Shown piece after piece: positions 20,401 to 55,100 of a stretch of 64,000 nucleotides of DNA. The notes beneath the pieces were generated by a model, which was not told the origin of the DNA, searched no databases, and saw nothing but the letters and a program-made list of their open reading frames with translations. The DNA comes from Candidatus Latescibacterota bacterium (GTDB lineage Bacteria > Latescibacterota > UBA2968 > GCA-2709665): contig OZ244744.1 in the NCBI GenBank assembly GCA_965219455.1, positions 1,280,001 through 1,344,000 of the forward strand. The letters run 5' to 3'. A program made the position numbers and the translations under genes. Positions within the stretch are counted from its first letter, which is position 1; each line of letters starts with the position of its first letter.

Positions 20401-22166
20401 GGTCCTATCTTTCACAGGACGCTCTAACTGCCGCGTTCGGATTGGGCGACGCCGACAGGGTTGATACCCTGACCGTTCGATGGCCTACGGGCATCGCACA
20501 GCGTCTCAGAAATATCGCCGCAAACACGGTGTTGGACCTGGCCGAAACAACGCCGCCCCCTCCGGTGAGGGTTGTGCTGGATGCGACTGCTAAGTCCCTC
20601 GCGGCCAACGGCGAGGCGCAGTCCAGAATCCGCGCCCGTATCCTGGACTCCGGGAACGAAATCTCGCTCATCAACAATCGTCGCCTGGTTTTTGACGTTG
20701 CGTCCGGCGATGGCGCCTTTGTGGGCGGCGATACGGCAATGGTGCGTGACGGGCTTGCATCCATCCTTTTTCAGGCCGGGACGACACCGGGTGACGTTGC
20801 CGCCACCGCACGGTTTCAGGGTCTCCCGCCCGGACGGATCACGATAAGCCTGCTGCCGCCCATAGGTCCTGACCACGCAACGGTCCGGACCGTTGCGGGG
20901 ATCGGCGGGGCCGAGGGCGATTTCAGCGGTGACGGAAGCCCCGCCATCGAAGCGTTCCTGAACGCGCCGAGAGACGTGGCGGTGGACACTTCGGGTGCGT
21001 TCTACATTGCCGATTCCGGAAACAACCGGGTCCGGAGGGTGGGCACGGACGGCGCCATCCGCACCATCGCCGGGGATGGGATCGGCTTTGCAACCGGCAC
21101 GGACGGTCCGGCGGTCGACGCCAGCCTCGGTGATCCCCGGGGCCTCGCGTTGACGCCCGGCGGCGATCTCATCATTTGCGAACAGAGCGGCCATATCGTC
21201 CGCCGGTTCGAACATTCCACAGGGAACATCCTCGCCTTCGCAGGCAGGGACATCCCCGGATTTGGTGGAGACGGGCGGGCGGCGGTGGATGCGAATCTTT
21301 CCGGCCCTGCGGGCGTTGCGGCAGACCCGATGGGCAACGTCTGGATCGCGGAACGCTTCAACCACCGGGTTCGAAGGGTCGACACCGGCGGCATTATCGA
21401 AACCATTGCAGGGAGCTTTCTGGAGGGTTTCGCGGGCGACGGAGACCGGGCCACACTGGCCGCACTGAACGGACCCAGGGGCGTGGCCGTAGACGCCATG
21501 GGTCGCGTGTACATAGCCGATACCGGAAACCATCGCATCCGCATGGTAGATACCGACGGCACTATTACCACCGTTGCCGGAACCGGGCGGTCCGGTTTTT
21601 CACGGGACGGCGGCCCCGGCGCCAGAACCCCTCTGAACAGCCCCGGGGACGTCGCGGCGGACAACAACGGACGTCTCTACGTCGCGGACACCGGCAATCA
21701 TCGGATACGCGTTCTGGACCTGCACCTGGACATCATCCAGACCGTGGGGGGTACCGGTGTCTCCGGATTCAATCACGCCGAGGGCGCCGGCATTGAAACG
21801 AGCCTCAATGCGCCATCCGGCATCGCCATCGATTCGGAAGGCAGGGTATACGTTGCCGACACGAACAACAATCGCATCCTGCAACTTACCGTCAACTTTC
21901 CCAATGAATACCAGCGCGAGCCCCCGACGGACCCGCCGCCACCACCACCGCCGCCCGAAGTCCCCTTCGGCGACGCCGACTTCAACAGCGACGGCGTGAT
22001 TGACTTTGCCGACTTCGTCCTCTTTGCGCAGGGCTTCGGCTCCACCGATCTGAGATTTGACCTCGACGGCGACGGAACCGTTGGATTCGCGGATTTCATC
22101 GTTTTCGTTACCGCCTTTGAACAAACCCCGCCATCGGTCCGCTTCCGGCCGGGAAGCCGTTTCTGA
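17442..22166 (+). CDS. Large secreted multidomain protein: NHL repeats, two Ig-like (ASH-type) domains, FG-GAP/CRTAC1 repeats + ASPIC/UnbV, Big-like domain, NHL repeats, C-terminal dockerin-like Ca-loop pair
   Basis: Signal peptide; YIADTGNHRIR / GFSGDGGPA repeats; AWADYDNDGDPDLY repeats; GGGSYLSQ..FGLG..VRWPTG; terminal DFNSDGVIDFADF..DLDGDGTVGFADF. Confidence 0.9.
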   Translation: MHFISTNNRTLFLLVVLLALAGASFAQTRGTMITIAGGGNQEGENIPATDLALSIPLGAASDADGHVYIADTGTHRIRRVDAVTGQVTTVAGTGEAGFSGDGGPAVEAQLERPQAVAVDEDGNIYLGDTGNRRIRRVDAGTGIITTIAGNGEFGFDGDGGPALSAVLGEIVALAVGPRGGLYIADGLDGQGRGNNRVRRIDLSGGGITTLAGDGDFSFGGDDGLAVEAGMTVEDIAVDASGNIFLADFNNYRIRRVDAETGTITTVAGRGPVFGGGGGFSGDGGPATDARLDLPGGVAVGADGTLYISDTGNSRVRAVDPNTGDIFTIAGTGNAGTAGEGGPAALAEFREPTRVVLDPDGNLIIVDTGNSRILKLLDPAYQSPVLRLTTARIDFRAVVVDDQVTRAITIENVGRRTLTLASAATDRETFVLLDAFPIEIEPAGQAEIRVRFSPRTEGVVEGTLIIDTDDPWRPTLTVPLSGTGAAPDIGVFPESIVFDRTFIGREQAFVLRVANLGAGVLTVFRAELSDSEQFSVSLDDTLRIPSSDRRILDVAFRPARAGTQRAELTLFSNDPDDPEIVIPLRGLGRVSKPGGFVDWAADRGMADQGAGFGAAWADYDNDGDPDLYLVRSRQPNLLYRNDGDGGFREIAAEVGVADDGDGSAAAWADIDGDDDLDLYVTNFGQPNRLYRNDGSRFTEVAAAAGVDDGGDGYGAAWSDVDGDGDPDLYVANFGDNRFYRNGGGRFVEAAAEAGLDDAGSSLQPAWADYDNDGDPDLFLANSGSNRLFRNDGGSFEDATSESGLEELGLGGPSFGASWGDFDNDMDLDLYVSYFEEGNRLYVNTGGQFQESSGSFNVAGSDTARSRGAVWGDFDNDGDLDLYVSNAGQKNHLFRNDGETFKDVADSFRVAAGANSRGVALADFNGDGGLDIFVAVQGGADHLFRNQESNGNWLAIRPRATQSSSDAIGTRFEIAFDGSRAIREITGGGSYLSQDALTAAFGLGDADRVDTLTVRWPTGIAQRLRNIAANTVLDLAETTPPPPVRVVLDATAKSLAANGEAQSRIRARILDSGNEISLINNRRLVFDVASGDGAFVGGDTAMVRDGLASILFQAGTTPGDVAATARFQGLPPGRITISLLPPIGPDHATVRTVAGIGGAEGDFSGDGSPAIEAFLNAPRDVAVDTSGAFYIADSGNNRVRRVGTDGAIRTIAGDGIGFATGTDGPAVDASLGDPRGLALTPGGDLIICEQSGHIVRRFEHSTGNILAFAGRDIPGFGGDGRAAVDANLSGPAGVAADPMGNVWIAERFNHRVRRVDTGGIIETIAGSFLEGFAGDGDRATLAALNGPRGVAVDAMGRVYIADTGNHRIRMVDTDGTITTVAGTGRSGFSRDGGPGARTPLNSPGDVAADNNGRLYVADTGNHRIRVLDLHLDIIQTVGGTGVSGFNHAEGAGIETSLNAPSGIAIDSEGRVYVADTNNNRILQLTVNFPNEYQREPPTDPPPPPPPPEVPFGDADFNSDGVIDFADFVLFAQGFGSTDLRFDLDGDGTVGFADFIVFVTAFEQTPPSVRFRPGSRF

Positions 22167-22168
22167 CA

Positions 22169-22804
22169 ATGGAACGAGCGCCCATCCTGACGGCCGATAA
22201 GTCCGGCATTGTCCAGGCTGCCGATCTGATACGATCGGGCGGTGTTGTCGTCTATCCTACCGAGACTGTCTACGGCCTGGGCGCCGACCCTTTCAATCAC
22301 CCCGCGTTTGACCGTATCTTCAGCCTCAAGGGCCGGGAAACGGAAAAGGGCCTCATTCTGCTTATCCGGGGCATGCAGGACCTGGAGGCGCTTGTCGCGG
22401 ACATTTCACTTGCCGCGGAAAGCCTTATAAGGGAATTCTGGCCCGGGCCGCTCACCCTCGTGTTTCCCGCCGCGTCCTGCCTTCCGGGTCACCTGACGGG
22501 ACCCGCGTCCACCATTGCCCTCCGCATGTCCGACGCGCCCGTCGCCAGCGCATTGCTCCACCATGTTGGCGGCCCCATCACCAGCACCAGCGCCAACCGC
22601 TCCGGACAACCTTCCGCCCGGAGCGCCCGGCAAGCCGCCGACGTGATCGGCCACCGTGTCGATGTCATCCTTGACGGCGGCGAGTCCTCGGATCCCCGCC
22701 CCTCCACCCTCGTTGACGTCTCAGGCCGGAATCCAAAAATCCTCCGACCGGGCCGCATCCCGGAAACGAAGATCGACCGGGTTCTGAATTCGGAGAGAGT
22801 CTGA
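22169..22804 (+). CDS. tsaC: L-threonylcarbamoyladenylate synthase (TsaC/YrdC)
   Basis: PTETVYGL, KGR, FWPGPLT, STSANRSG, PSTLVD. Confidence 0.95.
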   Translation: MERAPILTADKSGIVQAADLIRSGGVVVYPTETVYGLGADPFNHPAFDRIFSLKGRETEKGLILLIRGMQDLEALVADISLAAESLIREFWPGPLTLVFPAASCLPGHLTGPASTIALRMSDAPVASALLHHVGGPITSTSANRSGQPSARSARQAADVIGHRVDVILDGGESSDPRPSTLVDVSGRNPKILRPGRIPETKIDRVLNSERV

Positions 22805-22819
22805 CCCTGAGGAAGCCGG

Positions 22820-23015: not shown

Positions 23016-23144
23016 AGGCGCCACCGGCCCATGTGGGATTATACTGGGAGGAAGCGTCTGTGAAGGTGGGGCGGACATTCCTGTCTGCCCGCATCGCACG
23101 GTATCCCCGATCCAGACGGCCGCGAGCGAGTTCGACGGATTGGT

Positions 23145-24658: not shown

Positions 24659-26407
24659 ATGGGATTTTCACCGCGCACAATGGTTCAGCGCCCCCGCCGC
24701 GAGAGCGGGGGGAACAGGGCCCTGCTGGTACTGGTGGACAGCCGGGGCAGTTATACGAATACGAGCATCGTGGATCAGACCGTGCTCGTAGCTTTGCAGC
24801 ACTTCGGGTTTCCGTTTCGCATTCACGATCTGGCAGCCGGTCCGCTGACGCGCGACCATCTTGAGAACTGCGCCGCTGCGGTCATCGCCCAGGCCCGCCT
24901 GGGCGACGCCCTTTCGTTCGAAGAAACGGAGTTGCTGGCCTCGGGGGTTCAAGAAGCCGGGCTGGGACTGGTCAATTTCGACGGCGAACTGCGGCTGTAC
25001 AAACCGCCGCTGCTGCGTCTCTTCGGGATGGAGGTGGACCGGATTCCGATGGCCTCGGACCTGCTGCGCATCGGGGGTAACGACCATTTTATCAACTGGA
25101 CGCAGCAGGCGGGCAGTATGGTCCGGCTGAAGCGACCCGTGACCATTGCACAGATCAAGCGGGTCGGCCGGCACGTTGTGGAACTGGCGCAGGCTGCGAT
25201 GGGCAAGGACCAGCTCATCTTCTCCCGCCATAACGTGCCGGGTACGGCCTACGAGCCGGACCAGTTTCCGGCCGTGCTGGCCGGGGTCTGCGGCAGCGGC
25301 CGAGCGGTGCAGTTCGCCTGTTCCCCCCGCATCTGGCACGGGGAGTTTCTGGGCCACGCGATGGGGTTGGACGCCTTCTTCTGGCGCGCCATCGTCTGGG
25401 CGGCGCGCAAGCCGTTTGTGGCGCAAATGATGCCGCCCTACGTGACCATCCGGGTGGACGACGGCAGGGGGCGCCACGATTTCCGCTATACCGAGGTGAT
25501 GAACCGGCACGGTTACCGTCCGATGATCTCCTGCTTCCTGGACCTCGTTCCTGACGAGGTGGTGCCGTTTATGCGTGCCCGCTACACGGCCGGGCAGGTC
25601 GACTGGGACGCGCATGCTTTCGACTATTACAAGCTGATTCCGTTCGATTTCGGCATCGGAGAGTACAGCGACACGGAGTTGAAGGAAATCTTCGACCGGG
25701 TGGACCGGTGGTACGATGAACGGGGATTGAGGCCGCCGCGCCGGGCTGCGTTTCACTGGGGCGAGGTGGGCGTGCGCGTCCTGCCCTATCTGAAGGCCCG
25801 GGGACGGACGTTTGTCTATTCGACCTACCACCTGGGACAGGTGAAGTGGGAGCGGCTGTTTCCCAATTGGTGGCCCTACGGTCTCAACAGCCTGTTCTAC
25901 GACTATGTACCCGAAGACCCGGAGATGTACAACATAGGGGCCATGCTTCCCCGCCACCTCGTGGAGCCCGACGTGTTGACGGGCTGTACGACCTGGGCCG
26001 GAGACAATCCGACCAACGATATGGACAAGGCCGCGGACCGGGCGGCCGGTTCGGTCCGCCTGGCGCTGGACAGCGGGTTCTTTTCGGAGATCACCACCCA
26101 CGAGCAGAAGTTCGGCGTGCTGACCCTGGAGGAGATCGACCGGTGGCTGTCGCTGGCGTCACAAAAGACGGAACAATACGATATCCGGGGGGTGAGTCAC
26201 GACGAGGCCGCCGAGTATACCCGGGCCCGGGATGAGTCGTGGATTGCGGCCGCGTCCACGCCCGACGGCAAGGCGGCATGCCTCCGGCTGGGTGGAAAGG
26301 CGGGCGTGTCCCTGGAACTCGCCCTGTTCGAAAACGACGGGGACGGTGTGGTCCAGCGGTGGGAATCGGTCCCGGCGTTCAAGGAGGAGACCCGGGTCAA
26401 TCTCTGA
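24659..26407 (+). CDS. Hypothetical protein with a possible NodB/polysaccharide-deacetylase-like domain
   Basis: 582-aa ORF with coding-like composition. VTIRVDD, WDAHAF and TTHE resemble CE4/DUF2334-type motifs. Confidence 0.6.
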   Translation: MGFSPRTMVQRPRRESGGNRALLVLVDSRGSYTNTSIVDQTVLVALQHFGFPFRIHDLAAGPLTRDHLENCAAAVIAQARLGDALSFEETELLASGVQEAGLGLVNFDGELRLYKPPLLRLFGMEVDRIPMASDLLRIGGNDHFINWTQQAGSMVRLKRPVTIAQIKRVGRHVVELAQAAMGKDQLIFSRHNVPGTAYEPDQFPAVLAGVCGSGRAVQFACSPRIWHGEFLGHAMGLDAFFWRAIVWAARKPFVAQMMPPYVTIRVDDGRGRHDFRYTEVMNRHGYRPMISCFLDLVPDEVVPFMRARYTAGQVDWDAHAFDYYKLIPFDFGIGEYSDTELKEIFDRVDRWYDERGLRPPRRAAFHWGEVGVRVLPYLKARGRTFVYSTYHLGQVKWERLFPNWWPYGLNSLFYDYVPEDPEMYNIGAMLPRHLVEPDVLTGCTTWAGDNPTNDMDKAADRAAGSVRLALDSGFFSEITTHEQKFGVLTLEEIDRWLSLASQKTEQYDIRGVSHDEAAEYTRARDESWIAAASTPDGKAACLRLGGKAGVSLELALFENDGDGVVQRWESVPAFKEETRVNL

Positions 26408-26924
26408 TCGGAATTGAGCCGGACGGGAACGGCAGGTTGCGCTTTGAGCAGATGGAGGAGGTCCTCCGCCACCGCGCCCGGCAAGGGGCGATCTGCCAGT
26501 ACAGCGATGTAAATAGAATGAGTACGACGATGTCAACGGTCGCGATTTGCAGAAAGCGTGCGCTGCTCACGGCATGGGGCAAGCCGTGCGATACGCCGTA
26601 CCGCTTGTACCGAGTGTGACGGGTGACGCCAGAATCACGTCTCACTCTCCGGATCGTGGACATCCTACGGGATTGAGGGCATCCTGCCCTCGACTTTTCC
26701 CATCACTCCTCCCATGCGGGGAGTCGGCAATCCGGGGGCATCAGCCCACTGGCGCGCCGGTGGGTATAGATGTAGAAACCGCCAACAGCGACGACAGGAT
26801 CGCACGGTCTGGCTTCACAACGCCTGGATCCGTCCCCCTTGCAACCGCCACCGGATGTCGCGGCAGTCGCTCCTCCCTTCGAATCAATCCCGTAGAACGC
26901 GTCACGAGTACCTGATCCGAGCGG

Positions 26925-28410
26925 ATAGAGAGGTTTCCCAAGGTGATTTCCGGCGCGCGGACGTGATGTCGTGGCTGACAGGCTGTCCTATTCGCCCCGC
27001 GGGCGCCCGCGCGACCGGCATCAACCCCAGCCGGTGGGGCTCCCTGACCCGAAAGGCGGGAATCGTCCGCGGCATGGAGCAATGGCGCGACCGACTGAAT
27101 CTCTACGCGGAACGACTCAGCGAGGACGCTGCTCGACTGGCCGGCGCGGAGGAGACCACCGAAGCCCGTGCCGAACGCATGAAGTCCGAGGCAGCGGCCG
27201 CCCGGGAGGCGCTGGCCTTTATTGAAAAGCTGGCTGAGGACGTCGAGCCCCCGGTAAACCGGAGCACCTGGGGAGCATTCTGCCGTTGGGCCGATGAACT
27301 CCTGGATCGCTACCTGGACCGCGACATCCCCGACGCCGAGGTGGCTGTGTTGGAAAAGATCCGCCTCGCCCTGGAGGAGTTGGAAGCGGCCGTCAGCATC
27401 AACCCGGGAGCTACGCTGGATGAGTTTCGACAGACCGTCGAGGACTGGCTGGGAAGGACGGTCGGACACCTGGGTGTCACTGGAAGGGGCGTATTCGTAT
27501 CCCCCGTCGGTGGTGCCGCCGGCATGAGCTTCGACAGGGTATGGCTGGTGGGCATGATCGAAGGAGGAATGCCGCCTCCGGTTCGCCCCGACCCGCTGCT
27601 GCCGGAGCCGGACTGGCAGGCTGCCGGGGGCCACTCGCGCTTCGCTCAACGCGTCGCCGCCGAGCGCTGCGACTACCTGTCGGCGGTGGCCACCTCCCCC
27701 CACCGCGAACTGTCGACGACTCGGCGGAACACGCGATCATTGGCGCCGATGAAGCGTCCCTGGCCGACCGCCACGACTACAATCTGCACCGGCTCCTGCG
27801 GTGGAGACACGTTGGGCGCCGGTTGCTCGACCACCCCTTTACGCAGGACGAAACACTCTCGCGCGCAACGCGTCTGAGCCTTTGCCGGAACCAGAGTCGG
27901 CTGACGGAGTACGACGGCAATCTTTCGGCCCTCGCCGGGGAAGGTGGATTCCACCGGAAACTGCGCCGGGCGCCCGTCTCCGCCACGAGCCTGGAAAACT
28001 GGGGTACGTGCCCATTCCGCTATTTCCTCGGCCACGTACTGAGACTCGGCGCGCTCGAAACGCCGGAGGAAACAACCTCCATCACCCCCCTGGAGCGCGG
28101 TTCACTGATACACCGGATCCTGGAGCGGTTCATGAAGCAGGTCAACGGGGAGAAACTGCTGCCCGCGCCAGGGGAGGAGTGGAGCGACACGTTGCGCGAG
28201 CGGCTGTTCCGGATTGCCGGGGAGGCGTTCAGCCTGGCCGAGTCCCGTGGCGTGACCGGTAAGCCCCTCCTGTGGAAACTGGAAAAGCAGGACATCCTGA
28301 CCGACCTGGAGACCTTCATCGAAGAGGATTCGAAGCACCGGTCCTCCCACGGCACGCGCGGCGTTCTGGTCGAAGCGGGTTTCGGGTCCGGCGGCGGCGT
28401 TCCAGATGCT
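26925..28410 (+). pseudogene. Remnant of an AddB-like (PD-(D/E)XK) recombination protein
   Basis: GMSFDRVWLVGMIEG and PVSATSLENWGTCPFRYFLGHVL..ERGSLIHRILE. N-terminus absent, frame change near 27710, and nuclease catalytic C-terminus missing. Boundaries approximate. Confidence 0.7.
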
Positions 28411-30326
28411 GCCCCTGAAATGCAGCAAGGGCAGCCAGAAGAATTGGGACATCGACCCCGAAACGGGATTTAACGCATGCAAGGCTCTCAAAGGGCGCCT
28501 CAATGAGTTGCAAAACGCAACAGAGGAGGAATTGGATCTGGTCCGGCGCGCGGTCTTGAAACCGATTCTCGCGGGGCTCAGGCAGTTTGCACTGGACTAT
28601 GCCGACCAGCGTCGAAGAGAGGGCCGGGCGGAGTTCCACGATCTGCTGGTCTGGGCCCGCGACCTGCTCCGCGACAATCTCCCGGTGCGAGATCACTTGC
28701 GCGGGCGCTTCACGCACGTGCTCATCGACGAAGTCCAGGACACCGACCCCATACAGGCGGAAATCGCCATGTTCCTGTGCGAGGACGTCCCCGACGGGCA
28801 GACGGACCGTCCTCGTGCGACCACCTGGGATCAGGTGGTGCCGAAAAAGGGCAGGATATTCGTCGTAGGCGATCCCAAGCAGTCGATCTACCGCTTTCGT
28901 CGCGCCGACGTGGTCCAGATGGAACGGGTCAGGGAACGGATGGAGCATGCCGGTGGGCGAACGGTGAGCCTGTCGCAGAATTTCCGATCGCACCAAAGGC
29001 TCGTCGCGTGGGTCAATTATCTCTTTCAGCACTGGATGGGACAAGATCAGGAACAGGCCGGCATCGAGGGATATTACCAGGCCAGGTACGAGGACATGTC
29101 CCCCCGCTGGGCCGGTGAACCTCCGTCAGGCTGCGCGCCGCGGGTGTGGGCGCTTTCCGACAAGGCGGTCGATGCGGACATCGACGCGATTCGCAGGAAG
29201 GAAGCGCGAGAAATCGCCCGACTGCTTCGCCGGATGGTGGACGAAAAGTGGCAGAAGCTGGATGGAGACGCTACCAGGGCCAGCGGACGTGAGACCTTCG
29301 CATCGGTCACGTATTCCGACGTCTGCATCCTGATGCCCGGCCGAACCGGCGTTTCGATATTGGAGCGAGGACTCGAGGAGGGGAAAATCCCCTACCGTCT
29401 GGAAAGCGCGTCGCTGATTTTCGAAACCCAGGAAATCCGCGATCTGTTGAATTGCCTCAGGGCCATCGACGATCCCGGGGACCAGGTGGCTGTCGTCGCC
29501 GCGCTGCGCTCGCCGGCCTTCGGATGCAGCGACGTCGATCTGCTCAGGCACTATGAAGGCGGGGGTGGATTCGATTATCTGCAGCCGCGCGCCGGATGAG
29601 GCGCGCGACGACAGACGCCGACCCGACGCGGAACCGGTGCATACCGTTAAGGCTCGGGATGAGTGGTTGAACAAGCGTGAGGAGCTGATTGAGGAATTGG
29701 GTCGACCTGCATCGGTAGCCGCGACCTCACTTGGTAGTGGATTGCGGGAGGAAAAGGGCGAATCGGAGAGTCCCGAGCCGTGGCGGCGGGGGCGCGCCGG
29801 AACGTCGGTGGGTCGAGCCGTCCACGCCGTGCTGCAGTCGATCGACCCGGCTACCGGCGAGGACATCGATGACCGCGCACGGGCGCAGGCCGCCGCCGAG
29901 GGCATACCGGGCCGAAAAGATGAAATCGCCCGACTGTCTCGCGTTGCGATAGACAGCGCCATCGTCAAGCGGGCCGTAGCTTCCGGCCGGTATTGGCGAG
30001 AGGTGCCCGTGGCCGTTGCGATCGGCGACGGATCCCTTCACGGTTTCATCGACCTGTTGTTCGAAGAGCACGGCGATCTGGTCGTGATTGATTTCAAGAC
30101 CGATTCCGTCAGCGCGGCCGAGGTTGCCGGCCCACTCAAGGACAACTATCGCCTGCAGGGCGGCGCCTACGCCCACGCCATCCGCCACGTAACCGGCAAG
30201 GTTGTCAGGGAAGTGGGGTTCGTCTACCTCCAACCCCGATGCGAGGTGAGGTTGGAAGACCTGCGCCAGGCCATGCGGCATGCGGAAGCAGAAGCCCAAA
30301 AGTCCCTGAACCCCGCGGGAAAGTAG
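28411..30326 (+). pseudogene. Remnant of an AddA-like UvrD helicase-nuclease
   Basis: LIDEVQDT, VGDPKQSIYRFRRAD, LSQNFRS, then a RecB-type nuclease (REVP..GFIDLL..IDFKT..Q..AY) in another frame. Walker A and late helicase motifs are absent. Confidence 0.75.
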
Positions 30327-30696: not shown

Positions 30697-32541
30697 AGCA
30701 CCTACGCACCAATCTTCCAAGTGTTTTTGCCTTTTCATTCGTGTCTATCGGTGTTCATCGGTAGTTGCATTTGCCTTTCCCCCAGCCCCCGCTCAAGATG
30801 ACGCTGTTTTACCGAAATCGTTGACAAATATCAGAAAATCGCCAAACCCAATCTCGCCATTGCCATTCAGATCATACCGAGCGTCATACCTCGCATCGCC
30901 CCGGCTTAATCCGAATTGATCTACAAATCCCAAAAAATCGGCAAAGTCAACCGTACCACTGCCATCAAAGTCTGCGGGAAGAGCGGGTTTGTCAAACAGG
31001 ACCGCAACACCTCTCTTTTCCAGGTCTGGAATATATGTGTTGATGGCTGCTGAACTCAGCGGGTTGTCCTCGAGATTCAATGTGGTCAGGTTGGTTGCAA
31101 ATTCAAGCCCGATCAAATCGCGGATCTCTCGGTTCCTCAGGTCAAGTGTGGTCAAGCGTTCCACCTCAGCCCTGGTCAGAGGTCCGTAGCCGGATTTGCC
31201 CAAGGCTTCCCGAACGGCCGCTTTGAGGTTGAAGTCGGCCATATGTACTACGGGTGTGACATAAGGCGACAGGTTCCACAAGACGATGGTGTAATCCCCC
31301 TCTCTTTCATAACCGCCGCCTATTGACGTGGCGAAAGTTGTGCCATCGGGGGAAAATGCTGTACAAGCACCAAGCAGTCCAGCGTTAGTGTTGCCCTGAA
31401 ATCTCGCGATTCTTTCGTATGTATTTGCATCCCGAAGATCAATATCCCCACCCTGTGACGCGGTGATAATTTTTTCGCCATCAAGGGTAAATGACGCATA
31501 ACGGAGAAGATTATTCACCCTTACTATAAATTGATCCTTAAAGGCTCTTTTATCCACGTCCCAAAAAGCGACTTTGTTATTAAAAGCACCTGAAACGAGT
31601 GTTTTACCATCCGGTGAGAATGACACAGAAGTGACCGCGTTCTCATAGGGAAGGTTGGCAATCTCGGTCTTTGTCGCCACGTCCCATAGCCTGATCGTGC
31701 TATCAAAAGCACCCGAAGCGAGAGTCTTTCCATCCGGTGAAAATGCCACGCTCTGGACACCATGTGTATGGCCTATAAGAGGGGGGAGTTGGGTTTTTGT
31801 GGACATGTCCCATAGCCTGATTATGTTTGGGCCGCTCCCTTCGGCATCCGTTATTCCTGCGGCGAGGATTTTTCCATCGGGCGAAAAGGCCACACCTTTG
31901 GCGCTATTCCCCTTCTGTCTGTCCAGGGGGATGATGAGTTTGTGGGTCGAATTATGCAGCATCGAAAGGCCTATTTTGCGGATATTGCCGCGCGTATCCA
32001 CCGTCTCGAACGTCATCTTATGTACAAGAATAGTGGAGAGATTCGTAGCACCGGGATCCGATGGAATAATGCCGTCATACCGGAGGTCAACAGTCGCATT
32101 CGTCGCACCCCCTAATAGACGACCTGTCTTCAATTCGGGAGCGCCTGCGGAAAAGTGCGTTTCCGGTGTTGTGACAAATAGAGAGACCTGCTGAAGACCG
32201 TCAGGGTCGCTGAGTTCCAGTTGGATAGGGACGCTTGTTGCACCTGTCCGATATGAACGCGACGAAAGGATCTGGCACGTTGGCAAATCCAGCACATATT
32301 CCTGATACGTTGAACTATCGGAATTGAAATGGGGGTGTACGGCCAAATGCCCGGCGCTGAACTCGGATAACCTGGTTCGTCCACGACCATAAGACATGAT
32401 GTAGGCATCATTGTTGAAATTGTGCCACAATCCGAAAGCGTGTCCCAGTTCGTGGGCTGCTCTGGCAACGAAATTCGGGTCGATATATTGCCTCAACATC
32501 GCCCATCCACTATTTCTTGACGTTTGCAAACCAAGCCCTAA

Positions 32542-34222: not shown

Positions 34223-35092
34223 CTAATACATTTCGAAGTTGAATGTCTTCCTCGTTGCCCAGGACGATGAAGTAAATATTTGATTCGAGATCATATCCAT
34301 ATTCCCATCTAATTCTCTGAAGCGCACGCGCATAGTCGTAATTACCTCCGGTACCATATACGACATGAACCATGGGTTCACCTGGTGCATCTGTTTCATA
34401 ATTGAAGGTTCTTTCTCCGAACCCGTGCGCGCTTATCTGGTCTTCATAAATGCGCTGTACTTCCCGAATGGTTGTCTTCATCTTATCGACCACTTCTTGC
34501 CTGAACCCCTGCGGGTCGGACACGAAGTAGATCATCCTTACGGTGCGCGGCTCTCCCGCATCCAGGAGGGCCGGCTTGGCCGCTGCAGGTTGAGTTTGGC
34601 GATAGTGCTCAAGTTTCGCCAAATCGACCGGGACGCAAAAATGACTACTATCCTCCGCAGCATCGCTCACTGACGAGATCAGCAGGCATAAGGACAGGTT
34701 AAATATGAACTTTTTCATGATTTGGCCTCCTGACGGTGGATTTATATTCCTTCCCGCCGCAATGAATCGTACCCTGTCCACTGACACGTCAATTCCTCCA
34801 TCGGTGCCAGACGCCCCGGCACTTTCCCATATCAAACACCCGGCTTCAACCCCTTGTTGGAAGTTTGTCTGATGACACATTTGTACTTATATTGTGAAAT
34901 ATAAGGAATTTCTGTGAACTTCTAGTGATCGTAGGACCAATGGAGATGATCTTTTGGTGTGCAATCGCCAATGGCGTTAAAAATCTCCGAAAAAGTAAGG
35001 ATGCCGGTCGATAAATAACCGGTTTCTTCACGTTGCCGGAATTCTGACGACGGCGAAGACTAGTGCGCCTGACGCCCGGTGTGGAGGGAAAA

Positions 35093-46725: not shown

Positions 46726-48975
46726 CTACGCCGCCTTGCCGAAGGCCCAGGCGAAGACCAGGAAGTCCGCAAAGCCGATTGTCCCGTCCCGGTCCAGGTC
46801 AAAGCGCGGGTCGTAACCGACCTCGCCCCGGCTGAATCCGAACTTCGCGGCGAATTTGACGAAATCGCCAAAACCCACCTCGCCGTCGCCGTCGAAGTCC
46901 GGGACACGCGATTGTGTGGACGTAAACGAAGCCGTATCCCACAAATAGATCCAGAAGTCGGATGCGGCGGCCAACACGCCGCCGTCGGGCGAGAACGCTA
47001 TCGATTTGACCCAACTTGGCTGGGCGAACGTGTCAACTAACTTTTCACTCGTCACGTCCCACAGGTCGACCCTCCCAAGGCCTGAATCGGCTGCCAGGGC
47101 GCCGCCGTCGGGCGAGAACGCCACGTCCCCTACTCTTCGGTCACCCGCATCGAGCGTGGCGATGTGTTGCCGGGACGCCACGTCCCACAGTCTGACGGTA
47201 CCTTCCGTCGACCCCGAGGCCAACAGGCCGCCGTCGGGCGAGAACGCCACGGAATTGACGTGGTTGCCATGACCTTCCAGCGTGGCGATCTCTTCCCGGG
47301 ACGCCACGTCCCACAGCTTGATCGTCCTATCACCAGACCCCGAAGCCAGGGTGGTCCCATCGGGCGAGAACGCCAGAGACCTGACGCCTTGTGAAGTAGT
47401 ATGCCCCTTCAACGTCGCGATCTCTTCCCGGGACGCCACGTCCCACAGTATCACGGTACTATCCGATACCGAGGCCAACAGGTCGCCGTCCGGCGAATAC
47501 GCCACGGACCTGACGTAGTTGCCATGCCATTCCAGCGTGGCGACCTCTTCCCGGGACGCCACGTCCCACAGTGTGACGTTACCCTGCCACAATCCCGACG
47601 CCAGAGTGCTCCCATCGGGCGAAAACGCCACAGACGCGACCCCGTAAGTGTTAGGCGCTTCGAGCGTGGCGAGGTGTTGCCGGGACGCCACGTCCCACAG
47701 TCTGACGGTACCTTCCGTCGACCCCGCGGCCAATAGGCCGCCGTCAGGCGAGAATGCCACAGAGGTGAAAGCATCACAAGATTGATCCTTAAGGGACGCC
47801 AGGTGATACGGCGACTGTTGCGCAATCACAGACGAGACGGTTCCCGTGTTCCCATGCGTATCCGTAGATATACCCCACAAGAAATGCGCAGGGGAATCCG
47901 AAAGACTCGAATTGCGCTGGCCTGGTATAACGCCGTCATACTCGAACGCGACGATGGTCTCCGTTTCGCCTGCCAACATACGGCACGCCTTGACGTTCGG
48001 GATTGCACCCACTCGCCATTGGCGGGGGCTGCGAACCATCAGGATCACCTGGTGAACGCCATCCGGGTCGCTCACCCTCATCGGGATGGTCACGTGCGTC
48101 GAGCCGGCAGGATACCAGCGCGTGGGGGCGATGAATTCGATGGTGGGCCGCGATGACCAATCGGTTTCCTGTGAGATCTCGGGATTGAACCAGGACGCCA
48201 CCGACAGATATCCCGCCGAGCAGGCCGACAACCGCCACCGACTTCTTCCGCCAGACGACATGACGTGGTTTTTATCGCGGTAATCGTGCCAATCTATCCC
48301 GAAAGCATGGCCCAGTTCATGGGCGACTGTATTGAATCCGAAGCCTGCCGAAACGAACGCATAACCGTTGTTCTTATTCCCATTTCCCATTCCTGACCAC
48401 CCTCCGCCAGAGATATCGTAAATATGATCTTTACTGTTGTCAACAACGACAAGGTACACGTGGTAACGTCTTTCATACTCCCGAAAAATCTCGTTCAAGG
48501 AACGGTTACTCGTGGCTTTGAGATAATAGGCGTCGCCGTGATCGCCGTCCACGCGGTGCACCAGGGGCTCACCCTCCGAATCCGTCTCATAGCGGAAGTT
48601 CATCCCCCCGTACCCGTGCGCAGCCATCTGCTCTCCGAAGAACGTATGCGTCAGACGCATCATCGTCTTCATCGAATCCACCACCTCCTGACGATAGGGA
48701 CGGTCGTTCGGCAGAAAGTAGATCATGCGCACCGTGCGCGGCTCTCCCGCGTTCTTTTCCGCCGCCGCCTTCCCCGCATGCGGCAGATCCTCCCGCAGCC
48801 ACGCCTCGTCATCCACCACCGCGCCTGCCTGCGTACCGCGGACAGACAGGCAGAAGTGCACGCCGTCGGCAGGCGGCGACGAAACAGTAGCCACCGTCGG
48901 CAGACAGAGCACTACCAGTAAACACGCCGCCAGCGTGAACATCGACGTCAGCCAACGATCGCTCGATCTCTTCAT
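46726..48975 (-). CDS. Secreted metzincin-like peptidase + WD40 propeller + dockerin-like tail
   Basis: Signal peptide, GEPRTVRMIYFLPNDRP, HELGHAFGIDWH..VMS, about seven VAFSPDG..LWDV repeats, DFDGDGEVGFGDF..DLDRDGTIGFADF. Confidence 0.88.
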   Translation of the reverse strand: MKRSSDRWLTSMFTLAACLLVVLCLPTVATVSSPPADGVHFCLSVRGTQAGAVVDDEAWLREDLPHAGKAAAEKNAGEPRTVRMIYFLPNDRPYRQEVVDSMKTMMRLTHTFFGEQMAAHGYGGMNFRYETDSEGEPLVHRVDGDHGDAYYLKATSNRSLNEIFREYERRYHVYLVVVDNSKDHIYDISGGGWSGMGNGNKNNGYAFVSAGFGFNTVAHELGHAFGIDWHDYRDKNHVMSSGGRSRWRLSACSAGYLSVASWFNPEISQETDWSSRPTIEFIAPTRWYPAGSTHVTIPMRVSDPDGVHQVILMVRSPRQWRVGAIPNVKACRMLAGETETIVAFEYDGVIPGQRNSSLSDSPAHFLWGISTDTHGNTGTVSSVIAQQSPYHLASLKDQSCDAFTSVAFSPDGGLLAAGSTEGTVRLWDVASRQHLATLEAPNTYGVASVAFSPDGSTLASGLWQGNVTLWDVASREEVATLEWHGNYVRSVAYSPDGDLLASVSDSTVILWDVASREEIATLKGHTTSQGVRSLAFSPDGTTLASGSGDRTIKLWDVASREEIATLEGHGNHVNSVAFSPDGGLLASGSTEGTVRLWDVASRQHIATLDAGDRRVGDVAFSPDGGALAADSGLGRVDLWDVTSEKLVDTFAQPSWVKSIAFSPDGGVLAAASDFWIYLWDTASFTSTQSRVPDFDGDGEVGFGDFVKFAAKFGFSRGEVGYDPRFDLDRDGTIGFADFLVFAWAFGKAA

Positions 48976-49525: not shown

Positions 49526-52030
49526 TTACGACGTCGATTTACCGAAGGCCCCGGCGAAGATGAGAAAGTCCGCGAACCCGATCGTCCCGTCCCCATCCAG
49601 GTCGCACCGGACGTCGTACCCTTCGTCGCCCTGACGTTGTCCGAACTTTGCCGCAAACAGCACGAAATCGCCAAAGTCTATCTCCCCGTCGCCATTCACG
49701 TCGGGGCTGCCATGGGCACGCGCCGTAAAGACCGCCGGCTCGAGATCGGCCGCGCGCGCCACCACGGTGTTCATCCCCGCCTCCCTGCCCAGCGTCAAGG
49801 TCGTGGTGGCGTTCCCGCTCGTATCGGCCCTGGCGGCCGTTGCCGATACCGCGCCGCCGCCGTCGGTTACGGTAAACAGCACGGGCATGTCCGGAAACGG
49901 GTCTCCGTGCTCGTCACGCACCGACACCACGAACGGCGCGGCCAATGCCGACGCCACCGCACCCTGCTGCCCATCGCCAGAGACCGTCCTCACGAGAACG
50001 GGACGCCGGCGCACCCACTCGGAGGTGTCCCACACCTCTATCCTGCCTCTGTAGGTTGACGCCGCCAGCACGGACCCGTCGTGCCAATAGGCCAGCGAAG
50101 AGATCGAGCCGGTATGCGGCAGCCTCTCGTAGAGCTTCCCCGTGGCGGCGTTGCGCAGGATCACCGTACCTTCCGGGCCCCCCGAGGCCAGGATCTCCCC
50201 GTCCGGCGAAAACGTCAGATAATTGACCGTAGGCGCATGCACCATGGGCAGGTCCGCGATAATGTTCCGCGCGGCCGCGTCCCACAGCGCGATCAACCCC
50301 TCGGCCCCCGCGGTGGCAGCCAGCACGCGCCCGTCAGGCGAGAACGCGATTGAATTGATGCCTCTCCCGCCGGGCCGCACAAGCCGGTACCGTACCTTGC
50401 GCGCGGCCACGTCCCAGAGCCCGATGGAATAGTCGTATGAAGCCGACGCCAGGATGCTGCCGTCAGGCGAAAACAGCAACTGTGAAATTGAGCCGGTATG
50501 CCCTTTCAGGACGCCCATCAGTTCTCCGGTGGCCACGTCCCATACCTTCATCTTGTCCTCGTCGGAAAATGCGCCCGAGATCAGCGTCGCGCCGTCGGGA
50601 GAGAACGCCAACGCAAGCGTCCACCACGTATGCCCTGCCAGCGTGCCCGTCCGCTCCCGCGACGCCACGTCCCACAGCGTGATCCAGCCGTCTACGGTTC
50701 CCGCGGCCAGCATCGACCCGTCCGGCGAGAACGCCAGCGACCGAATCTCGCTGTCGCTCCCGCTCAGGGTGGCCGTCTCTTCATACGTCTTCGTATCCCA
50801 CAGCTTGATGGTGCTGTCCCCCGATCCCGATGCCAGCGTCGTCCCGTCGGGGGACATTGCGAGCTGTCGGACGAATTTCGTATGTCCTTCCAGCGTGGCC
50901 AGGTGATACGGCGACCGCTGTGCGAACGTCCACCCCTCGTAGCCCTGATCACCTCGCTTGTCCACCGCCAGGAATCCGATATAATGGGATGGCGGATCCG
51001 ACAACGACGTGATGGTTCTACGGCCGGGTACCACGCCGTCATACTCGTACTCGATGACCGCTTCCTTCCCCCCCGACAGCGTGCGGCACGCCTTGAGTTC
51101 GAGAATAAAGCTCCCGCCGATGGGGTCCGAAATCAACATGGTCAGCTGATGCAGGCCGTGACGCGCCTTGAGCTTCAGACGCACGGTAATGCTTTGCGAA
51201 CCCTCTTCATACCACAAGGGCGACAGCAGCTCAACCGTGGGGCGTGCGTCCCAATCCCATTCAAGGGGGACCTCCGCGTTGAAAAAAGGGTGCACGGACA
51301 GGAACGCCGCGCTGCACGCCGATAGACGATCTCTTCCGCGCACTATCGAGAGGATGTGCGCGTGATCCCGGGAATCGTGGTAGAGCATCCCGAAGGCGTG
51401 CGCCAGTTCGTGCGCGGCTGTGTCGAAGCTGACACCGCCGGGAACGTACACCATCCCTCCATCCTTGCCACCGGCCGCCCTGCCTGCCGGGGCGCCAAAA
51501 GGACCCAGTCTGTGTCCGAAGCGGTTGTCGATCACGATGAACAGAACGACGTTGGCCGGATCATACGCGTCCCTGACCTCCCTTTGCACCGTTTCCGTCA
51601 TACGGTTGTCATAATAGCGGTCCGCGTGGGCGCCGTCCAGGCGGTGCACCACGGGCTCGCCATCCGCGTCCGCCTCATAGCGGAACGTCGTATAACCATA
51701 CCCGTGCGATTCCATCTGCTGTCCGAAGAACCGCTGCAGACGCACCATCATCGCCTTCATCGTATCCACCACCGACTGCCGGTACGGACGGTCGTTCGGC
51801 AGAAAGTAGATCAGTCGCACCGTACGCGGCTCGCCTACGTTCAACTCCGACGCAACCTTGCCCGCAACAGCAGCATCGTCCCGCCGCGCCTCGTGATCCA
51901 GCACCTCGCAGCGGTACTCACCCACGGCAGGCGGCGACGCGGGACCCGGAGCCGGGTAGCAGAGCAATGCCAGAAAGCACGTCGCCAGCGTCAACGTTAC
52001 TTGCAAACGATCAACAATCCATCTATCCAC
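49526..52030 (-). CDS. Secreted metzincin-like domain + WD40 + Big_1-like Ig + dockerin-like tail
   Basis: GEPRTVRLIYFLPNDRP, HELAHAFGMLYH, WD40 repeats, SGDGQQG..V.D..G.P..F.V..GGG, DVNGDGEIDFGDF..DLDGDGTIGFADF. Confidence 0.88.
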   Translation of the reverse strand: MDRWIVDRLQVTLTLATCFLALLCYPAPGPASPPAVGEYRCEVLDHEARRDDAAVAGKVASELNVGEPRTVRLIYFLPNDRPYRQSVVDTMKAMMVRLQRFFGQQMESHGYGYTTFRYEADADGEPVVHRLDGAHADRYYDNRMTETVQREVRDAYDPANVVLFIVIDNRFGHRLGPFGAPAGRAAGGKDGGMVYVPGGVSFDTAAHELAHAFGMLYHDSRDHAHILSIVRGRDRLSACSAAFLSVHPFFNAEVPLEWDWDARPTVELLSPLWYEEGSQSITVRLKLKARHGLHQLTMLISDPIGGSFILELKACRTLSGGKEAVIEYEYDGVVPGRRTITSLSDPPSHYIGFLAVDKRGDQGYEGWTFAQRSPYHLATLEGHTKFVRQLAMSPDGTTLASGSGDSTIKLWDTKTYEETATLSGSDSEIRSLAFSPDGSMLAAGTVDGWITLWDVASRERTGTLAGHTWWTLALAFSPDGATLISGAFSDEDKMKVWDVATGELMGVLKGHTGSISQLLFSPDGSILASASYDYSIGLWDVAARKVRYRLVRPGGRGINSIAFSPDGRVLAATAGAEGLIALWDAAARNIIADLPMVHAPTVNYLTFSPDGEILASGGPEGTVILRNAATGKLYERLPHTGSISSLAYWHDGSVLAASTYRGRIEVWDTSEWVRRRPVLVRTVSGDGQQGAVASALAAPFVVSVRDEHGDPFPDMPVLFTVTDGGGAVSATAARADTSGNATTTLTLGREAGMNTVVARAADLEPAVFTARAHGSPDVNGDGEIDFGDFVLFAAKFGQRQGDEGYDVRCDLDGDGTIGFADFLIFAGAFGKSTS

Positions 52031-52116
52031 GTCGCCATCACTCCCTTCACGTTATTGGCGACATCACATCACCCTCAGTCCCTCATTGGAGTACAATCAG
52101 CCTTCAATCACAGTAA

Positions 52117-55100
52117 TCATTGTCCGCTTTGCGCCGCCGCGTCGCTCTCGATATAGCCCGTCAGGATCACGAAATCCGCGTAGTTGATCGTCCCGTCGCC
52201 GTTCAGGTCCATCCGCCTGTCAAACCCCGCATCCGACCTGCCCAGCCCCATCTTCTTATTGAACAACGCCGCATCCGCGGCATCCCGCCTCCCGTCGCCA
52301 TTGAAATCCCCCGGCAGCGCGACGGTCATCCTGAACGACGTGGTTACCCGCCGGTCGTCCTCGTCGTCGACGACAACCGTTACCGTGGCGCTGCCCAGTT
52401 GCGTAGGGGTGCCGCCGATACGCCCGCTTGACGAAATGGAGATGCCGGCGGGTTCGCTTTCCAGGTCATACGTATACGATCCCCTGCCACCGGATACCGA
52501 CACCTGGATCGGGTCCATGTCAAGCTGCCACGTCACCACCACGTCCGAAATCGAGGCGATGGTCAACGGAGCACTGACACGCAACTGAAACGACGGGGTC
52601 GTCGCCGTTACGCCCTTCTTATCGGTGACCGTCACCGTCGCCGTGGACGTGCCCGTGCTTGTCGGCGTGCCGCTGATACGTCCGCTGGATCGGTTGAAAT
52701 TTACCCACGAAGGCTTGCCCGACATCGTGAACGCAAACGGTGTCTCACCTCCGGACGCCGACGCCGCTCTTGCAGGCATCTCCTGCCCCACGGTCGCCTC
52801 CACGTCGCGGATGTCGGCAATCTCCAGCGGCGGATCTACGACCTCGATCTCGAACGTTGTCGTGCCCCAACAGCCGCCGGCATCCGTCGCCTTCACCGTC
52901 ACGAGGTATGTGCCGGTTGTGTTCGGGGCCCTGCCGCTGATGGCCCCGCCGGTGGATACCGTCACCCACGACGGTCCGATCTCCTTCCTGAACGTATACG
53001 GCGACTGACCTCCGGAGGCGCGGGCCGTCATCGAAGGCATATTCTCATCCACCTCCACCTTCACGTTATCCAGGCCGCCCACAGTTATTGTCGGACATGT
53101 TACGGTGACATTGATTGAACCCGGGCCGGTATTCCCTTCCGCGTCCGTCGCCGTCACGCCGAAGGTGTAGGGGCCAGGCGCCGTGCCTGACGGCGGTTCA
53201 ACGGTGTATTCGTTGCTCCCCGTTTTTCTCACCCAACCCAGCCCGCCTGGATCCCCAAATGTCTTCGTCCCGCATCCCCCTTCCGCGCTCACGGTCACCG
53301 TCGCCGTCTCCCCGGCCGGCACCACCACCGGATCCGGGTTCTGCGTGACCGTGATCGGCGGACATTCAACCTCGATCTCGAATTCTTCATCGTCGGAATT
53401 GTTCCTATTGTCTCTGTCCGTCGCCGTCACCGTAACGTCGTAGGTTTTCTCGATGGGCCCCACGTTGCCTTCGATAAACCCCGTGTCAGAGACAATCCCT
53501 ACGCCCGTCGGCTGGCCTGATATGGAAAATTCAGCCGTCGGGCATGCAGGAATCACACTGGCCGTGAGCCCTATCTCCGTACGTGGCGTCACCTGCATAT
53601 TCTGGATCTCCCGGATGACGAACGGCGCGCAGACAACAGTGATCATGAAATCCTCGTCGTCGGTATTGTTCCTATTGACCATGTCCCTCGCCGTCACCCT
53701 CACGTTGTATTCACGGACGTCGTCCCCCACGCTACCGGTGATGACCCCGGTGTTCCGATCAATCTCTAAACGTCCAGGCGCGCCCGTCATCGACCATTTA
53801 ATCGACCCGCATCCCCCGGACGCATGCGGCGTGATTGTGATGCGTGTATTCACCGGCACCGTCTTGTTTGAGATCGGATCGATGACAACCGGCTCACAGA
53901 CGGTGATTTCAAACGAACACGTTGCCGTACTGTCAGGCGCATCCTCGACGGTCACCTCGACATTGTATTCGCCTGCCGGCGTCGCCGTCCCGCTGATCGT
54001 TCTATCCCCATCGTTTGATGGTTGTGTTGATATACCCAGAGTTAATTCCGACGGGCTGATAGACAAAGGATCAAACGTATACGGCGTAGTACCCCCTGAC
54101 GCCGTCGCCGTCAGCGAGATGGTCGCACCCTCCTTTACCGTCTGGTCCGCCGGGCACGTGATGGTCAGGTCTCGAATTTCGTCGAGTGTCGTCACCGTTT
54201 TGCTCGTCGAGCCGCCTTCACCGCAAGGGTTCCACGCAAGCACCTCGAAGGTATACGCAGTCCCTGCGTTTAAATTTGGCACCGTATGGCTCGTCGTGAG
54301 GCCTATCCCGGTCCAATTCTCCGGCAAATCCACTGTAGATTTCGCATATCTGACTCGATTTTCTGTGATCATGCCGCTCGGATTGGTCCACGACAATACC
54401 ACCTGCCTGACTCCCGCGGTCGCATTCAGGTTGGTCACGTCTCCTGGAACGGACCCCGTCGTGGTTGCCGTCGCGATGTCCGCATCGCCTACACTGTTAT
54501 TGGGGCAATCGTTCTTCGCGCGCACCTGGAATGTATATTCCTCGCAGACGTCCAGACCTTGCACCGTATGGGTCGTCGTTTCGCCTATGCTGGTCCACGT
54601 CGACCACAGGGGTGTGTCTGATACCTTATATCTGACGTGATTGTCTATAATCGTGCCACTCGGATTGGTCCACGACAATGCCACCTGTCCGACTCCCGCG
54701 GTCGCATTCAGGTTGCTCACCGCCCCTGGCGCTAAGCATGGCGGCGGCGGCGGAGGTGGAGGTGGCGGTGGCGGCGGCGGTGTGACGGTCTCCTGCCGTG
54801 GCGTCGCCATTGCCCTTGCCGAGTCGCCGTGGACCATCCCTGCTTTCGCGCGCGCCTCGAACGTATACTCGATCCGGTTGGTCAACCCCGTCACTACGTG
54901 GCGCGTCGTGTTGGGACCGCTATCGGTTATTTCGCTCCAATCAGGCAGCGCCAACGTGCTTCTGGCATATCGGAGCTGATAACCAATTACGGCGGCGTCA
55001 CGAGGATCAGACCACGTCAGCGTCACCTTCCTGTTTCCTGACGCCGCCCTGAAATTGGCGGGCTTCGCAGGCACGGGCGTGGCCGTCACGCGGGCCGAAG

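Follow-up and report, generated by a model that had tools for sequence, protein, structure and literature searches.

A candidate genome-wide cohesin-dockerin display system with type IX secretion anchors in a Latescibacterota bacterium

Cohesins and dockerins outside cellulosomes have long been known, and an arrangement in which a cohesin anchored by a type IX secretion system (T9SS) holds dockerin-tagged peptidases is of a kind that has already been proposed. That proposal was made in silico for 'Ca. Stygibacter' (Cloacimonadota) and comprises a T9SS-anchored cohesin scaffoldin together with dockerin-tagged GH18, GH57, S8 and C25 enzymes (PMC8542988). This study concerns a 64,000-nucleotide stretch of the genome of a Candidatus Latescibacterota bacterium (contig OZ244744.1, positions 1,280,001 to 1,344,000; hereafter the window), in which five genes, P0001 to P0005, end in a dockerin-like tail, and the genome around it, a single contig of 5.84 Mb rated 100% complete. 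The data presented here suggest that the five tails are quite likely part of a genome-wide, non-cellulosomal cohesin-dockerin system of about 113 tagged proteins with T9SS-anchored sockets.

The likeness to 'Ca. Stygibacter' covers both sides of the proposed pairing. The published proposal has signal-peptide proteins with C-terminal dockerins, S8 and other peptidases among them, a cohesin protein that ends in a C-terminal domain for surface attachment, a Gram-negative host of the FCB type and a target other than cellulose (PMC8542988). A cohesin protein that ends in a T9SS sorting domain, a feature of systems of that type, is also found here. The two differ in architecture. The published proposal has a single scaffoldin of 3,755 aa, in which cohesins stand in tandem and carbohydrate-binding modules (CBMs) are present, and a handful of dockerin enzymes (PMC8542988). 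In the Latescibacterota genome there are six mono-cohesin anchors, a scaffold with two cohesins, cohesin-dockerin heads on twelve giants and some 113 open reading frames (ORFs) with a dockerin, mainly of repeat proteins.

Clostridial dockerins (type II and B. cellulosolvens-type; 2y3n_B, 4u3s_B, 5m0y_B and 3kcp_A) share with the modules of this genome the two loop/helix repeats of about 22 residues, the internal symmetry, a fold that superposes at an rmsd of 1.2-1.9 Å and a position at the end of an exported protein, where a Pro-rich or Ig linker precedes them. In contrast to the clostridial modules, those studied here have no X-module, are often N-proximal and, in no fewer than 83 of 103 cases, have Phe at positions 10, 13, 16 and 20. 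The system also departs from the clostridial cellulosome in that its cargo is almost free of carbohydrate-active enzymes (CAZymes; 4/87) and in that its host is a diderm with a predicted T9SS, as opposed to the SLH and sortase anchors of Gram-positive bacteria. For C. thermocellum the literature quotes about 70 dockerin enzymes, compared with the roughly 113 dockerin ORFs found in this study.

Non-cellulosomal cohesin and dockerin modules were reportedly described by Peer et al. in 2009. Like the modules in this study, those of ANME archaea and of Archaeoglobus (2xdh) are numerous in organisms that are not cellulolytic, found together on one polypeptide and suspected of a part in adhesion. An ANME-1 column gives 80 cohesin and 149 dockerin entries of unknown function (PMC5244752), and a giant ORF with nine dockerins is given for the Omnitrophota (PMC10066038). 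Compared with modules of the ANME type, the sockets here are tied to a T9SS sorting domain, the cargo spectrum is a defined one and the expansion is confined to one bacterial order. The classical T9SS cargo of the Bacteroidota bears a sorting domain of the same TIGR04183 family (22 copies here) and uses the same SprA translocon. However, most secreted-type proteins of this genome bear a dockerin instead, with 9 of the 22 sorting domains concentrated on cohesin carriers. Literature searches (main texts, supplements apart) found no paper on a Phe-rich dockerin subtype or on a dockerin secretome dominated by WD40 and LRR proteins, and no paper that described such a system by way of sponges or symbionts, candidate phyla or WD40/LRR links to dockerin. 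What is distinct here is the scale (about 113 ORFs), the eukaryote-like repeat and protease cargo, the order-wide mono-cohesin anchors with a C-terminal sorting domain (CTD), the cohesin-dockerin heads and the Phe-rich signature.

The window tails and their predicted fold

The translations of the five ORFs and the last 95 residues of each were examined. A duplicated Ca-loop/helix motif forms the C-terminus of all five, as an earlier note on this DNA had claimed, and the module bounds given by a hidden Markov model (HMM) agree with the ranges in that note. The proteins and their modules are:

P0001, 17442..22166, + strand: 1574 aa; signal peptide, NHL propellers, ASH/Ig, FG-GAP/ASPIC, NHL, Pro-rich linker, dockerin (short-linker form)
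P0001 dockerin module, 21963-22127, + strand: custom HMM E 3e-21
P0002, 30793..32529, - strand: 578 aa as called; truncated metzincin-like head, WD40, LRR-like stretch, C-terminal dockerin
P0002 dockerin module, 30799-30990, - strand: custom HMM E 2.3e-30
P0003, 46726..48975, - strand: 749 aa; signal-peptide-like start, HExxH metzincin-like head, WD40 propeller, C-terminal dockerin
P0003 dockerin module, 46729-46914, - strand: custom HMM E 2.3e-30
P0004, 49526..52030, - strand: 834 aa; signal-peptide-like start, HExxH head, WD40 propeller, Ig-like domain, C-terminal dockerin
P0004 dockerin module, 49529-49717, - strand: custom HMM E 6e-32; first row of the folded alignment
P0005, 52117..58605, - strand: 2162 aa; 13 FN3 domains, six He_PIG Ig domains, C-terminal dockerin
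P0005 dockerin module, 52135-52323, - strand: custom HMM E 3.7e-29

The repeat, D-F/L-D/N-G-D-G-x-V/I-G/D-F-x-D-F-L/V-x-F-A-x-x-F-G, occurs twice in each tail, and the linker between the two repeats takes a long form in four tails, whereas that of P0001 has six residues fewer. No sixth copy of the module was found in the window with the five-tail HMM. By sequence alone, the module is intermediate between EF-hands and dockerins. The cut-offs were 22.9 bits for Dockerin_1 (PF00404, Pfam gathering threshold), 25.4 bits for EF-hand_1 and 29 bits for NF041540 (NCBIfam, curated). The tail of P0005 gave 42.8 bits with Dockerin_1, the best score in the genome, and 18.2 bits with EF-hand_1; its first helix is without the Phe signature, and it is the nearest of the five to canonical dockerins. 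The corresponding Dockerin_1 and EF-hand_1 scores were 28.7 (over the cut-off) and 30.3 bits for P0004, 19.9 and 26.2 bits for P0002, 18.5 and 30.8 bits for P0001, and 12.5 and 27.9 bits for P0003. NF041540, named 'GC-type dockerin domain-anchored protein', has the same length and loop pattern as the module, and the short-linker tail of P0001 passes it at 30.6 bits; however, it does not capture the long-linker form that makes up the majority, and only 12 of its 44 matches in the genome at E<=0.01 are over the cut-off.

When the five-tail profile was compared with the PDB, the top match was the dockerin 2y3n_B (E 7e-14), aligned in one full-length stretch that included the linker, and calmodulins came next at about 1e-9 as two separate stretches. 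An AlphaFold2 model built from an alignment of 57 C-terminal tails (the five of the window and 52 from other parts of the genome) has a mean pLDDT of 91 and two helices (H18-27 and H51-60), each of which follows a loop. The model has no entering helices before the Ca loops, and so lacks the pair of helix-loop-helix units of an EF-hand pair. In Foldseek searches of the PDB, ranks 1 to 10 were all dockerins (TMq 0.67-0.80, rmsd 1.2-1.9 Å, 50-60 columns) and the matches down to rank 24 were mostly dockerins as well, whereas troponin, calmodulin and their relatives reached a TMq of only 0.2-0.3 at an rmsd of about 10 Å. Because the predicted fold superposes on dockerins and not on calmodulin or troponin, the five tails are, on this model, dockerins of a Phe-rich subtype. 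An ordinary EF-hand pair, the outcome that would have overturned the dockerin assignment of the earlier note, is ruled out by this difference in fold.

The same pattern holds beyond the window. Both loops are canonical (12 residues; D1, D/N3, D/N5, G6, V/I8, D12) in 103 of the 105 full-length modules of the genome, and each loop is followed by an F-x-x-F-A-x-x-F-G helix, with Phe at positions 10, 13, 16 and 20 in 83-100 of the 103 modules. The consensus had been described as Phe-rich and unlike the clostridial types, and this description is judged correct. The two repeats of a module are on average 55% identical to each other; internal repeat symmetry of this kind occurs in dual-binding dockerins.

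Dockerins, cargo and cohesin sockets across the genome and the order

The five-tail profile was run over all stop-to-stop frames of at least 50 aa at E<=1e-3, and the module was found in 113 ORFs of the genome. The 108 ORFs beyond the window mean that the match among the five tails goes beyond chance. The module lies within 15 residues of the stop in 61 of the 113 ORFs and more than 100 residues from it in 45, where it is mostly N-proximal, with seven in between. When the 105 full-length modules were classed by position, 57 were C-terminal, 25 directly followed a signal peptide, 13 stood within about 10 residues after a cohesin, eight were otherwise N-proximal or internal and two preceded a cohesin; the dockerin consensus is identical across all of these classes. 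Signal-peptide-like starts were flagged in 76 of the 113 dockerin ORFs, compared with 96 of 600 random ORFs of at least 400 aa, by a crude heuristic rather than a proper predictor. The true share among the dockerin ORFs is probably higher, since the heuristic misses cases such as P0003. The view that the tag is C-terminal and accompanied by a signal peptide throughout the genome is therefore borne out for placement at protein ends and for signal-peptide enrichment, but not for the 45 ORFs in which the module is not C-terminal.

Dockerin_1 itself matches 79 times in the genome at E<=0.1, and 40 of these matches exceed the cut-off. Another dockerin ORF lies within 5 kb of 70 of the 113, and the dockerin loci seem to be recombining actively. 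On a FastTree phylogeny of the 105 dockerins, position changes between C-terminal and N-side 13 times, compared with 31-38 times among the ten shuffles listed of 200. C-terminal and N-side dockerins thus fall mostly in separate clades, a pattern that whole-gene duplication alone can give. Clustering of the cargo by single linkage lumped 65 of the 113 ORFs through shared repeats and was uninformative.

The cargo was scanned with Pfam in 87 of the 113 ORFs (three as partial ranges); of the other 26, 20 were classed by regular expression only (19 WD40-like and one LRR-like) and six are shorter than 150 aa. WD40 propellers were found in 16 and LRR in 15 of the 87 scanned ORFs, along with giants built of FN3, cadherin and Big_9 domains, CARDB and LDL-receptor class B proteins, and propellers of the NHL, FG-GAP, lactonase, Vgb-type and PD40 kinds. 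Enzyme-type cargo consists of four members of the FGE-sulfatase family, two S8 subtilases, one M10 and one M8 peptidase and the metzincin-like heads, and about 20 scanned ORFs had no Pfam match. Only four of the 87 are CAZyme-like (one GH5 and three heparinase II/III-like), which agrees with the non-CAZyme cargo first suggested from the window alone. A strict cellulosome was considered and rejected on this low CAZyme content, on the limit of at most two cohesins per protein and on the lack of any CBM among the Pfam matches of the cohesin proteins.

The window holds no cohesin. The earlier note had placed the receptor outside it, and the genome-wide search located 26 cohesin modules elsewhere, in 25 ORFs, with a genome-specific profile; Pfam Cohesin (PF00963) gave 18 matches, seven of them over the cut-off. 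Six intact anchors of 275-311 aa consist of a signal peptide, a cohesin and a T9SS C-terminal sorting domain; two of the six are identical duplicates, and there are one truncated copy and one fragment in addition. Two large proteins end in a dockerin, a cohesin and a sorting domain, twelve adhesin-like giants start with a cohesin that is followed about 10 residues later by a dockerin, and one NHL protein has a C-terminal cohesin and dockerin. The 1623-aa protein L015 carries two cohesins, He_PIG, four lamin-tail domains and a sorting domain. FlgD_ig/Por_Secre_tail was matched by Pfam on the cohesin proteins L009, L012, L014, L015, L016 and L017. The head cohesins of the giants and the cohesins of the anchors are only 13-21% identical. 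A model of the anchor L014, made from an alignment of 33 homologues, has a pLDDT of 83.7, and its Foldseek matches are almost all cohesins (TMt 0.55-0.71) of type I, type II and archaeal non-cellulosomal kinds, 2xdh included. When the L014 cohesin was co-folded with the P0004 tail and two Ca, the score was 0.08 (mark 0.32), which is no evidence on binding either way.

A dockerin gene lies on the same strand 10-234 bp from five of the six intact anchors, on both sides in four cases; once segmental duplication is allowed for, about three of these loci are independent. Random 850-bp segments adjoin a dockerin gene in the same way in 6.5% of cases.

Further observations concern individual cohesin loci. 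The anchor genes at G000:C1:703519-704343 and 709001-709825 have identical scores and lengths (a segmental duplication), and a third copy at 5318384-5319127 is truncated after the cohesin. A 732-aa frame at G000:C1:5400902-5403097 (+), directly before the two-cohesin L015 (5403187-5408055), combines ASH, LTD and Ig-like parts with a T9SS sorting domain of its own and a dockerin of the canonical, non-Phe kind, which the five-tail profile missed (Dockerin_1 37.7 bits). This protein and L015 may be a second, separate cohesin-dockerin specificity pair. The cohesin-dockerin-FN3-cadherin giant L019 (G000:C1:4784183-4788622) ends, at residues 1176-1472, in a PPDK_N domain (E 4e-24), and such a fusion to a pyruvate phosphate dikinase ATP-binding domain is odd for an exported protein.

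All 22 TIGR04183 sorting domains of the genome are over the cut-off. Their carriers include nine cohesin proteins, the 732-aa non-Phe dockerin protein and one PorU-like protein. The SprA translocon is present, with 631 bits summed and over the cut-off.

Among named relatives, the best rpoB identity is 62-64% (metagenome-assembled genomes of Ignavibacteria and Fibrobacteraceae), followed by 58-59% for Calditrichales and Zixibacteria. Within the order, the dockerin tag was found in 31 of 31 relatives from two families and six genera, in 35-119 copies, and the anchor family was found in all 31 as well. A sample of the phylum comprised 61 genomes, 20 from the order (the window's own genome, G000, included) and 41 from outside it; such kin are non-independent, and no statistic was drawn from them. 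All 20 order genomes have both modules in numbers, with 21-103 dockerin and 3-45 cohesin matches. Outside the order, 1-27 dockerins were found in 23 of the 41 genomes and 1-4 cohesins in 18; both modules occur in 14, a dockerin only in nine, a cohesin only in four and neither in 14. At least nine cohesins stand in tandem in a single 1835-aa frame of G027, a relative from the same order (G027:C1:586555-590376, +); this is a true multi-cohesin scaffoldin, a type lacking in the genome of the window.

The window proteins and their surroundings

P0001 combines NHL (1.9e-76), FG-GAP_3 (7.6e-59) and UnbV_ASPIC (8e-18) by Pfam. P0003 and P0004 have WD40 matches of 9.5e-66 and 9.8e-57; the head of P0003 reaches 20.7 bits with Reprolysin_4, under the cut-off of 22, and that of P0004 matches only Reprolysin_5 at E 0.067. 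In P0002 the WD40 match is 5e-28, there is no signal peptide as the ORF stands, and the motif HELGHAFGLWH lies at about residue 26, where about 218 would be usual. P0005 has fn3 at 3e-125 and He_PIG at 1.3e-44. These results uphold the cargo as first described, namely NHL/FG-GAP/ASPIC, three WD40 proteins with HExxH heads and 13 FN3 domains with He_PIG, except that the peptidase assignment rests on metzincin matches that are all sub-threshold. A paralogue elsewhere in the genome has a peptidase head with a Reprolysin_5 match of 3e-8. When related loci were sought in other genome contigs with P0003 as the query, none was confirmed.

Since the HELGH motif lies at about residue 26 rather than 218 and no continuation was found in the upstream frames, P0002 is a 5'-truncated copy. 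The gene of a DDE_Tnp_1_4 insertion sequence (IS) transposase (E 2e-155) lies directly upstream on the same strand (32778-34142, -), with a dip to 53% GC, and an IS insertion probably removed the signal peptide and most of the peptidase head. A 239-aa ORF beside the transposase (34164-34880, -) had no Pfam match. The P0005 ORF opens within an FN3 repeat with no signal peptide seen, and in the 1.1 kb or so upstream of it (window 58606-59750) its strand is free of long frames and shows neither a signal peptide nor more FN3. Deletion at the 5' end, collapse of a repeat or a start of an unusual kind could be behind this.

Polysaccharide-export genes, Wza-like (Poly_export/SLBB) and Wzz/GNVR, lie just 5' of P0001 (window 13394-16341, +); these fit a diderm envelope and capsule export. 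The window dockerin genes are otherwise surrounded by housekeeping genes (LepA, signal peptidase I), and none forms an operon with a cohesin. Elsewhere in the window, two overlapping frames at 35372-36805 (+) and 36516-37466 (+) split one HATPase_c domain (profile positions 2-62 and 54-110); the first frame also has PAS, GAF and HisKA and the second has Response_reg and Trans_reg_C, a pattern that suggests either a hybrid kinase-regulator with a frameshift or a fault in the assembly. A second overlapping pair consists of a partial UvrD-helicase (28406-29596, +; profile positions 164-269 only) and a PD-(D/E)XK nuclease (29553-30323, +), and may be a fragmented AddAB-like gene. Two large ORFs before the UvrD-helicase ORF, 24659-26404 and 26714-27874, had no Pfam match.

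Proposed display system and alternative readings

From these components we infer how the two modules would bind and pair, with what specificity and calcium dependence, where on the cell they would lie and what biological role they would have. The T9SS would export the cohesin-CTD proteins and fix them on the surface of the outer membrane, and dockerin-tagged proteins would then plug into the cohesin sockets in a Ca-dependent manner, with an exchangeable surface coat of binders and proteases as the result. Docking could be direct or could go through the cohesin-dockerin heads of the giants as adaptors. A two-tier form is favoured because the anchors adjoin giants with N-proximal dockerins and because twelve giants carry a free cohesin at their tip. 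In this form the anchor cohesin would hold the dockerin of a giant, and the head cohesin of the giant, or the two-cohesin scaffold, would hold C-terminal dockerins such as the five in the window.

Several results weigh against this proposal. By sequence scores, only two of the five tails pass the Dockerin_1 cut-off and only one, P0001, passes that of NF041540, whereas four pass that of EF-hand_1 (26-31 bits) with scores that exceed their Dockerin_1 scores. Signal peptides had been claimed for four of the five window proteins, and three are supported; the script flagged P0001 alone, P0003 and P0004 are signal-peptide-like by eye, and P0002 and P0005 have none as they stand. Across the genome, 37 of the 113 dockerin ORFs were left unflagged by the heuristic. 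All dockerin neighbours of the anchors are N-proximal dockerins, and no cohesin adjoins a C-terminal-dockerin gene anywhere in the genome. As for the T9SS, the PorU-like match (E 4e-63) scores 213 bits against a curated cut-off of 420 and the PorV-like match (E 9e-30) 104.9 bits against 250. Models for GldL and GldM matched nothing in the genome, though no control matched either, which makes these searches uninformative. Finally, the dockerin proteins have no T9SS sorting domain, and their crossing of the outer membrane is left unexplained by the proposal. No Secretin (PF00263) was matched in the genome at E<=0.001 while six control genomes were matched, so no secretin of a type II secretion system or type IV pilus is detectable.

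This last difficulty is where a different account of the dockerin has its appeal, albeit one that we consider unlikely. The dockerin could be a trans-acting T9SS tag, such that tagged proteins would dock in the periplasm on cohesin-CTD carriers, pass through SprA as folded complexes and be anchored along with the carrier; a small carrier family would then be export adaptor and anchor at once for more than 100 Sec-exported proteins without a sorting domain. The T9SS moves folded substrates, the dockerin proteins have Sec-type starts, 57 of the 105 full modules are at the extreme C-terminus, and cohesin carriers make up nine of the 22 sorting-domain proteins. S8 and metallo-peptidases and LRR and FN3/cadherin adhesins bear sorting domains of their own in Bacteroidota, whereas here proteins of these kinds carry dockerins. 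The lack of a secretin in a complete single-contig genome, with positive controls, would also fit. However, we know of no precedent for hitch-hiking through the T9SS, the search was confined to the secretin family and other routes across the outer membrane are possible, and it seems difficult for giants of 2000-3000 aa on a 28-kDa carrier to pass through.

A partner is assumed to be lacking for many orphan 'dockerins' outside cellulosome producers, and the tails could likewise be EF-hand-like Ca-binding stabilisers or linkers with no cohesin partner, which we regard as improbable. The preference of four tails for EF-hand_1, the calmodulin matches of the five-tail profile at about 1e-9, the lack of a cohesin gene beside any C-terminal-dockerin gene and the nine of 41 sampled genomes outside the order with a tag and no detected cohesin would all agree with it. 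It is at odds with a predicted fold like that of dockerins and unlike that of EF-hand pairs, with the 26 cohesins in the genome, 12 of which are fused within about 10 residues of a dockerin, with the expansion of both modules in 20 of 20 sampled order genomes and with anchors that adjoin dockerin genes in five of six cases. In the least probable of the readings, the main role of the system would be to polymerise the giants head to tail into a self-assembling fibre or coat, and the window tags would sit on such polymers only as caps or decorations instead of docking on CTD anchors. The cohesin and dockerin at the start of twelve giants suggest this, as does the low identity of head and anchor cohesins, which makes two specificities possible. 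The separation of C-terminal from N-side dockerins on the tree (13 changes) is also in its favour, but can be explained by whole-gene duplication alone, and the dockerin consensus is the same in every position class. The position of the anchors beside giants suits anchoring better than free polymers. T9SS-anchored display by cohesin and dockerin is thus the reading that we prefer, in support of the surface platform that the earlier note had suggested.

The findings raise the question of how, with no secretin detectable in the genome, proteins that lack a T9SS signal would arrive at the surface. Should plugs and sockets bind in the proposed way, this would be cellulosome-style assembly at full scale for a purpose other than degrading plant cell walls, in which WD40, LRR, FN3, cadherin and LDL-receptor-type binders and proteases would be displayed on a Gram-negative surface by way of the T9SS. 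Such a system would be a natural Gram-negative display scaffold for engineering, and would give a concrete function to many of the "orphan" dockerins and "eukaryote-like proteins" of uncultured bacteria.

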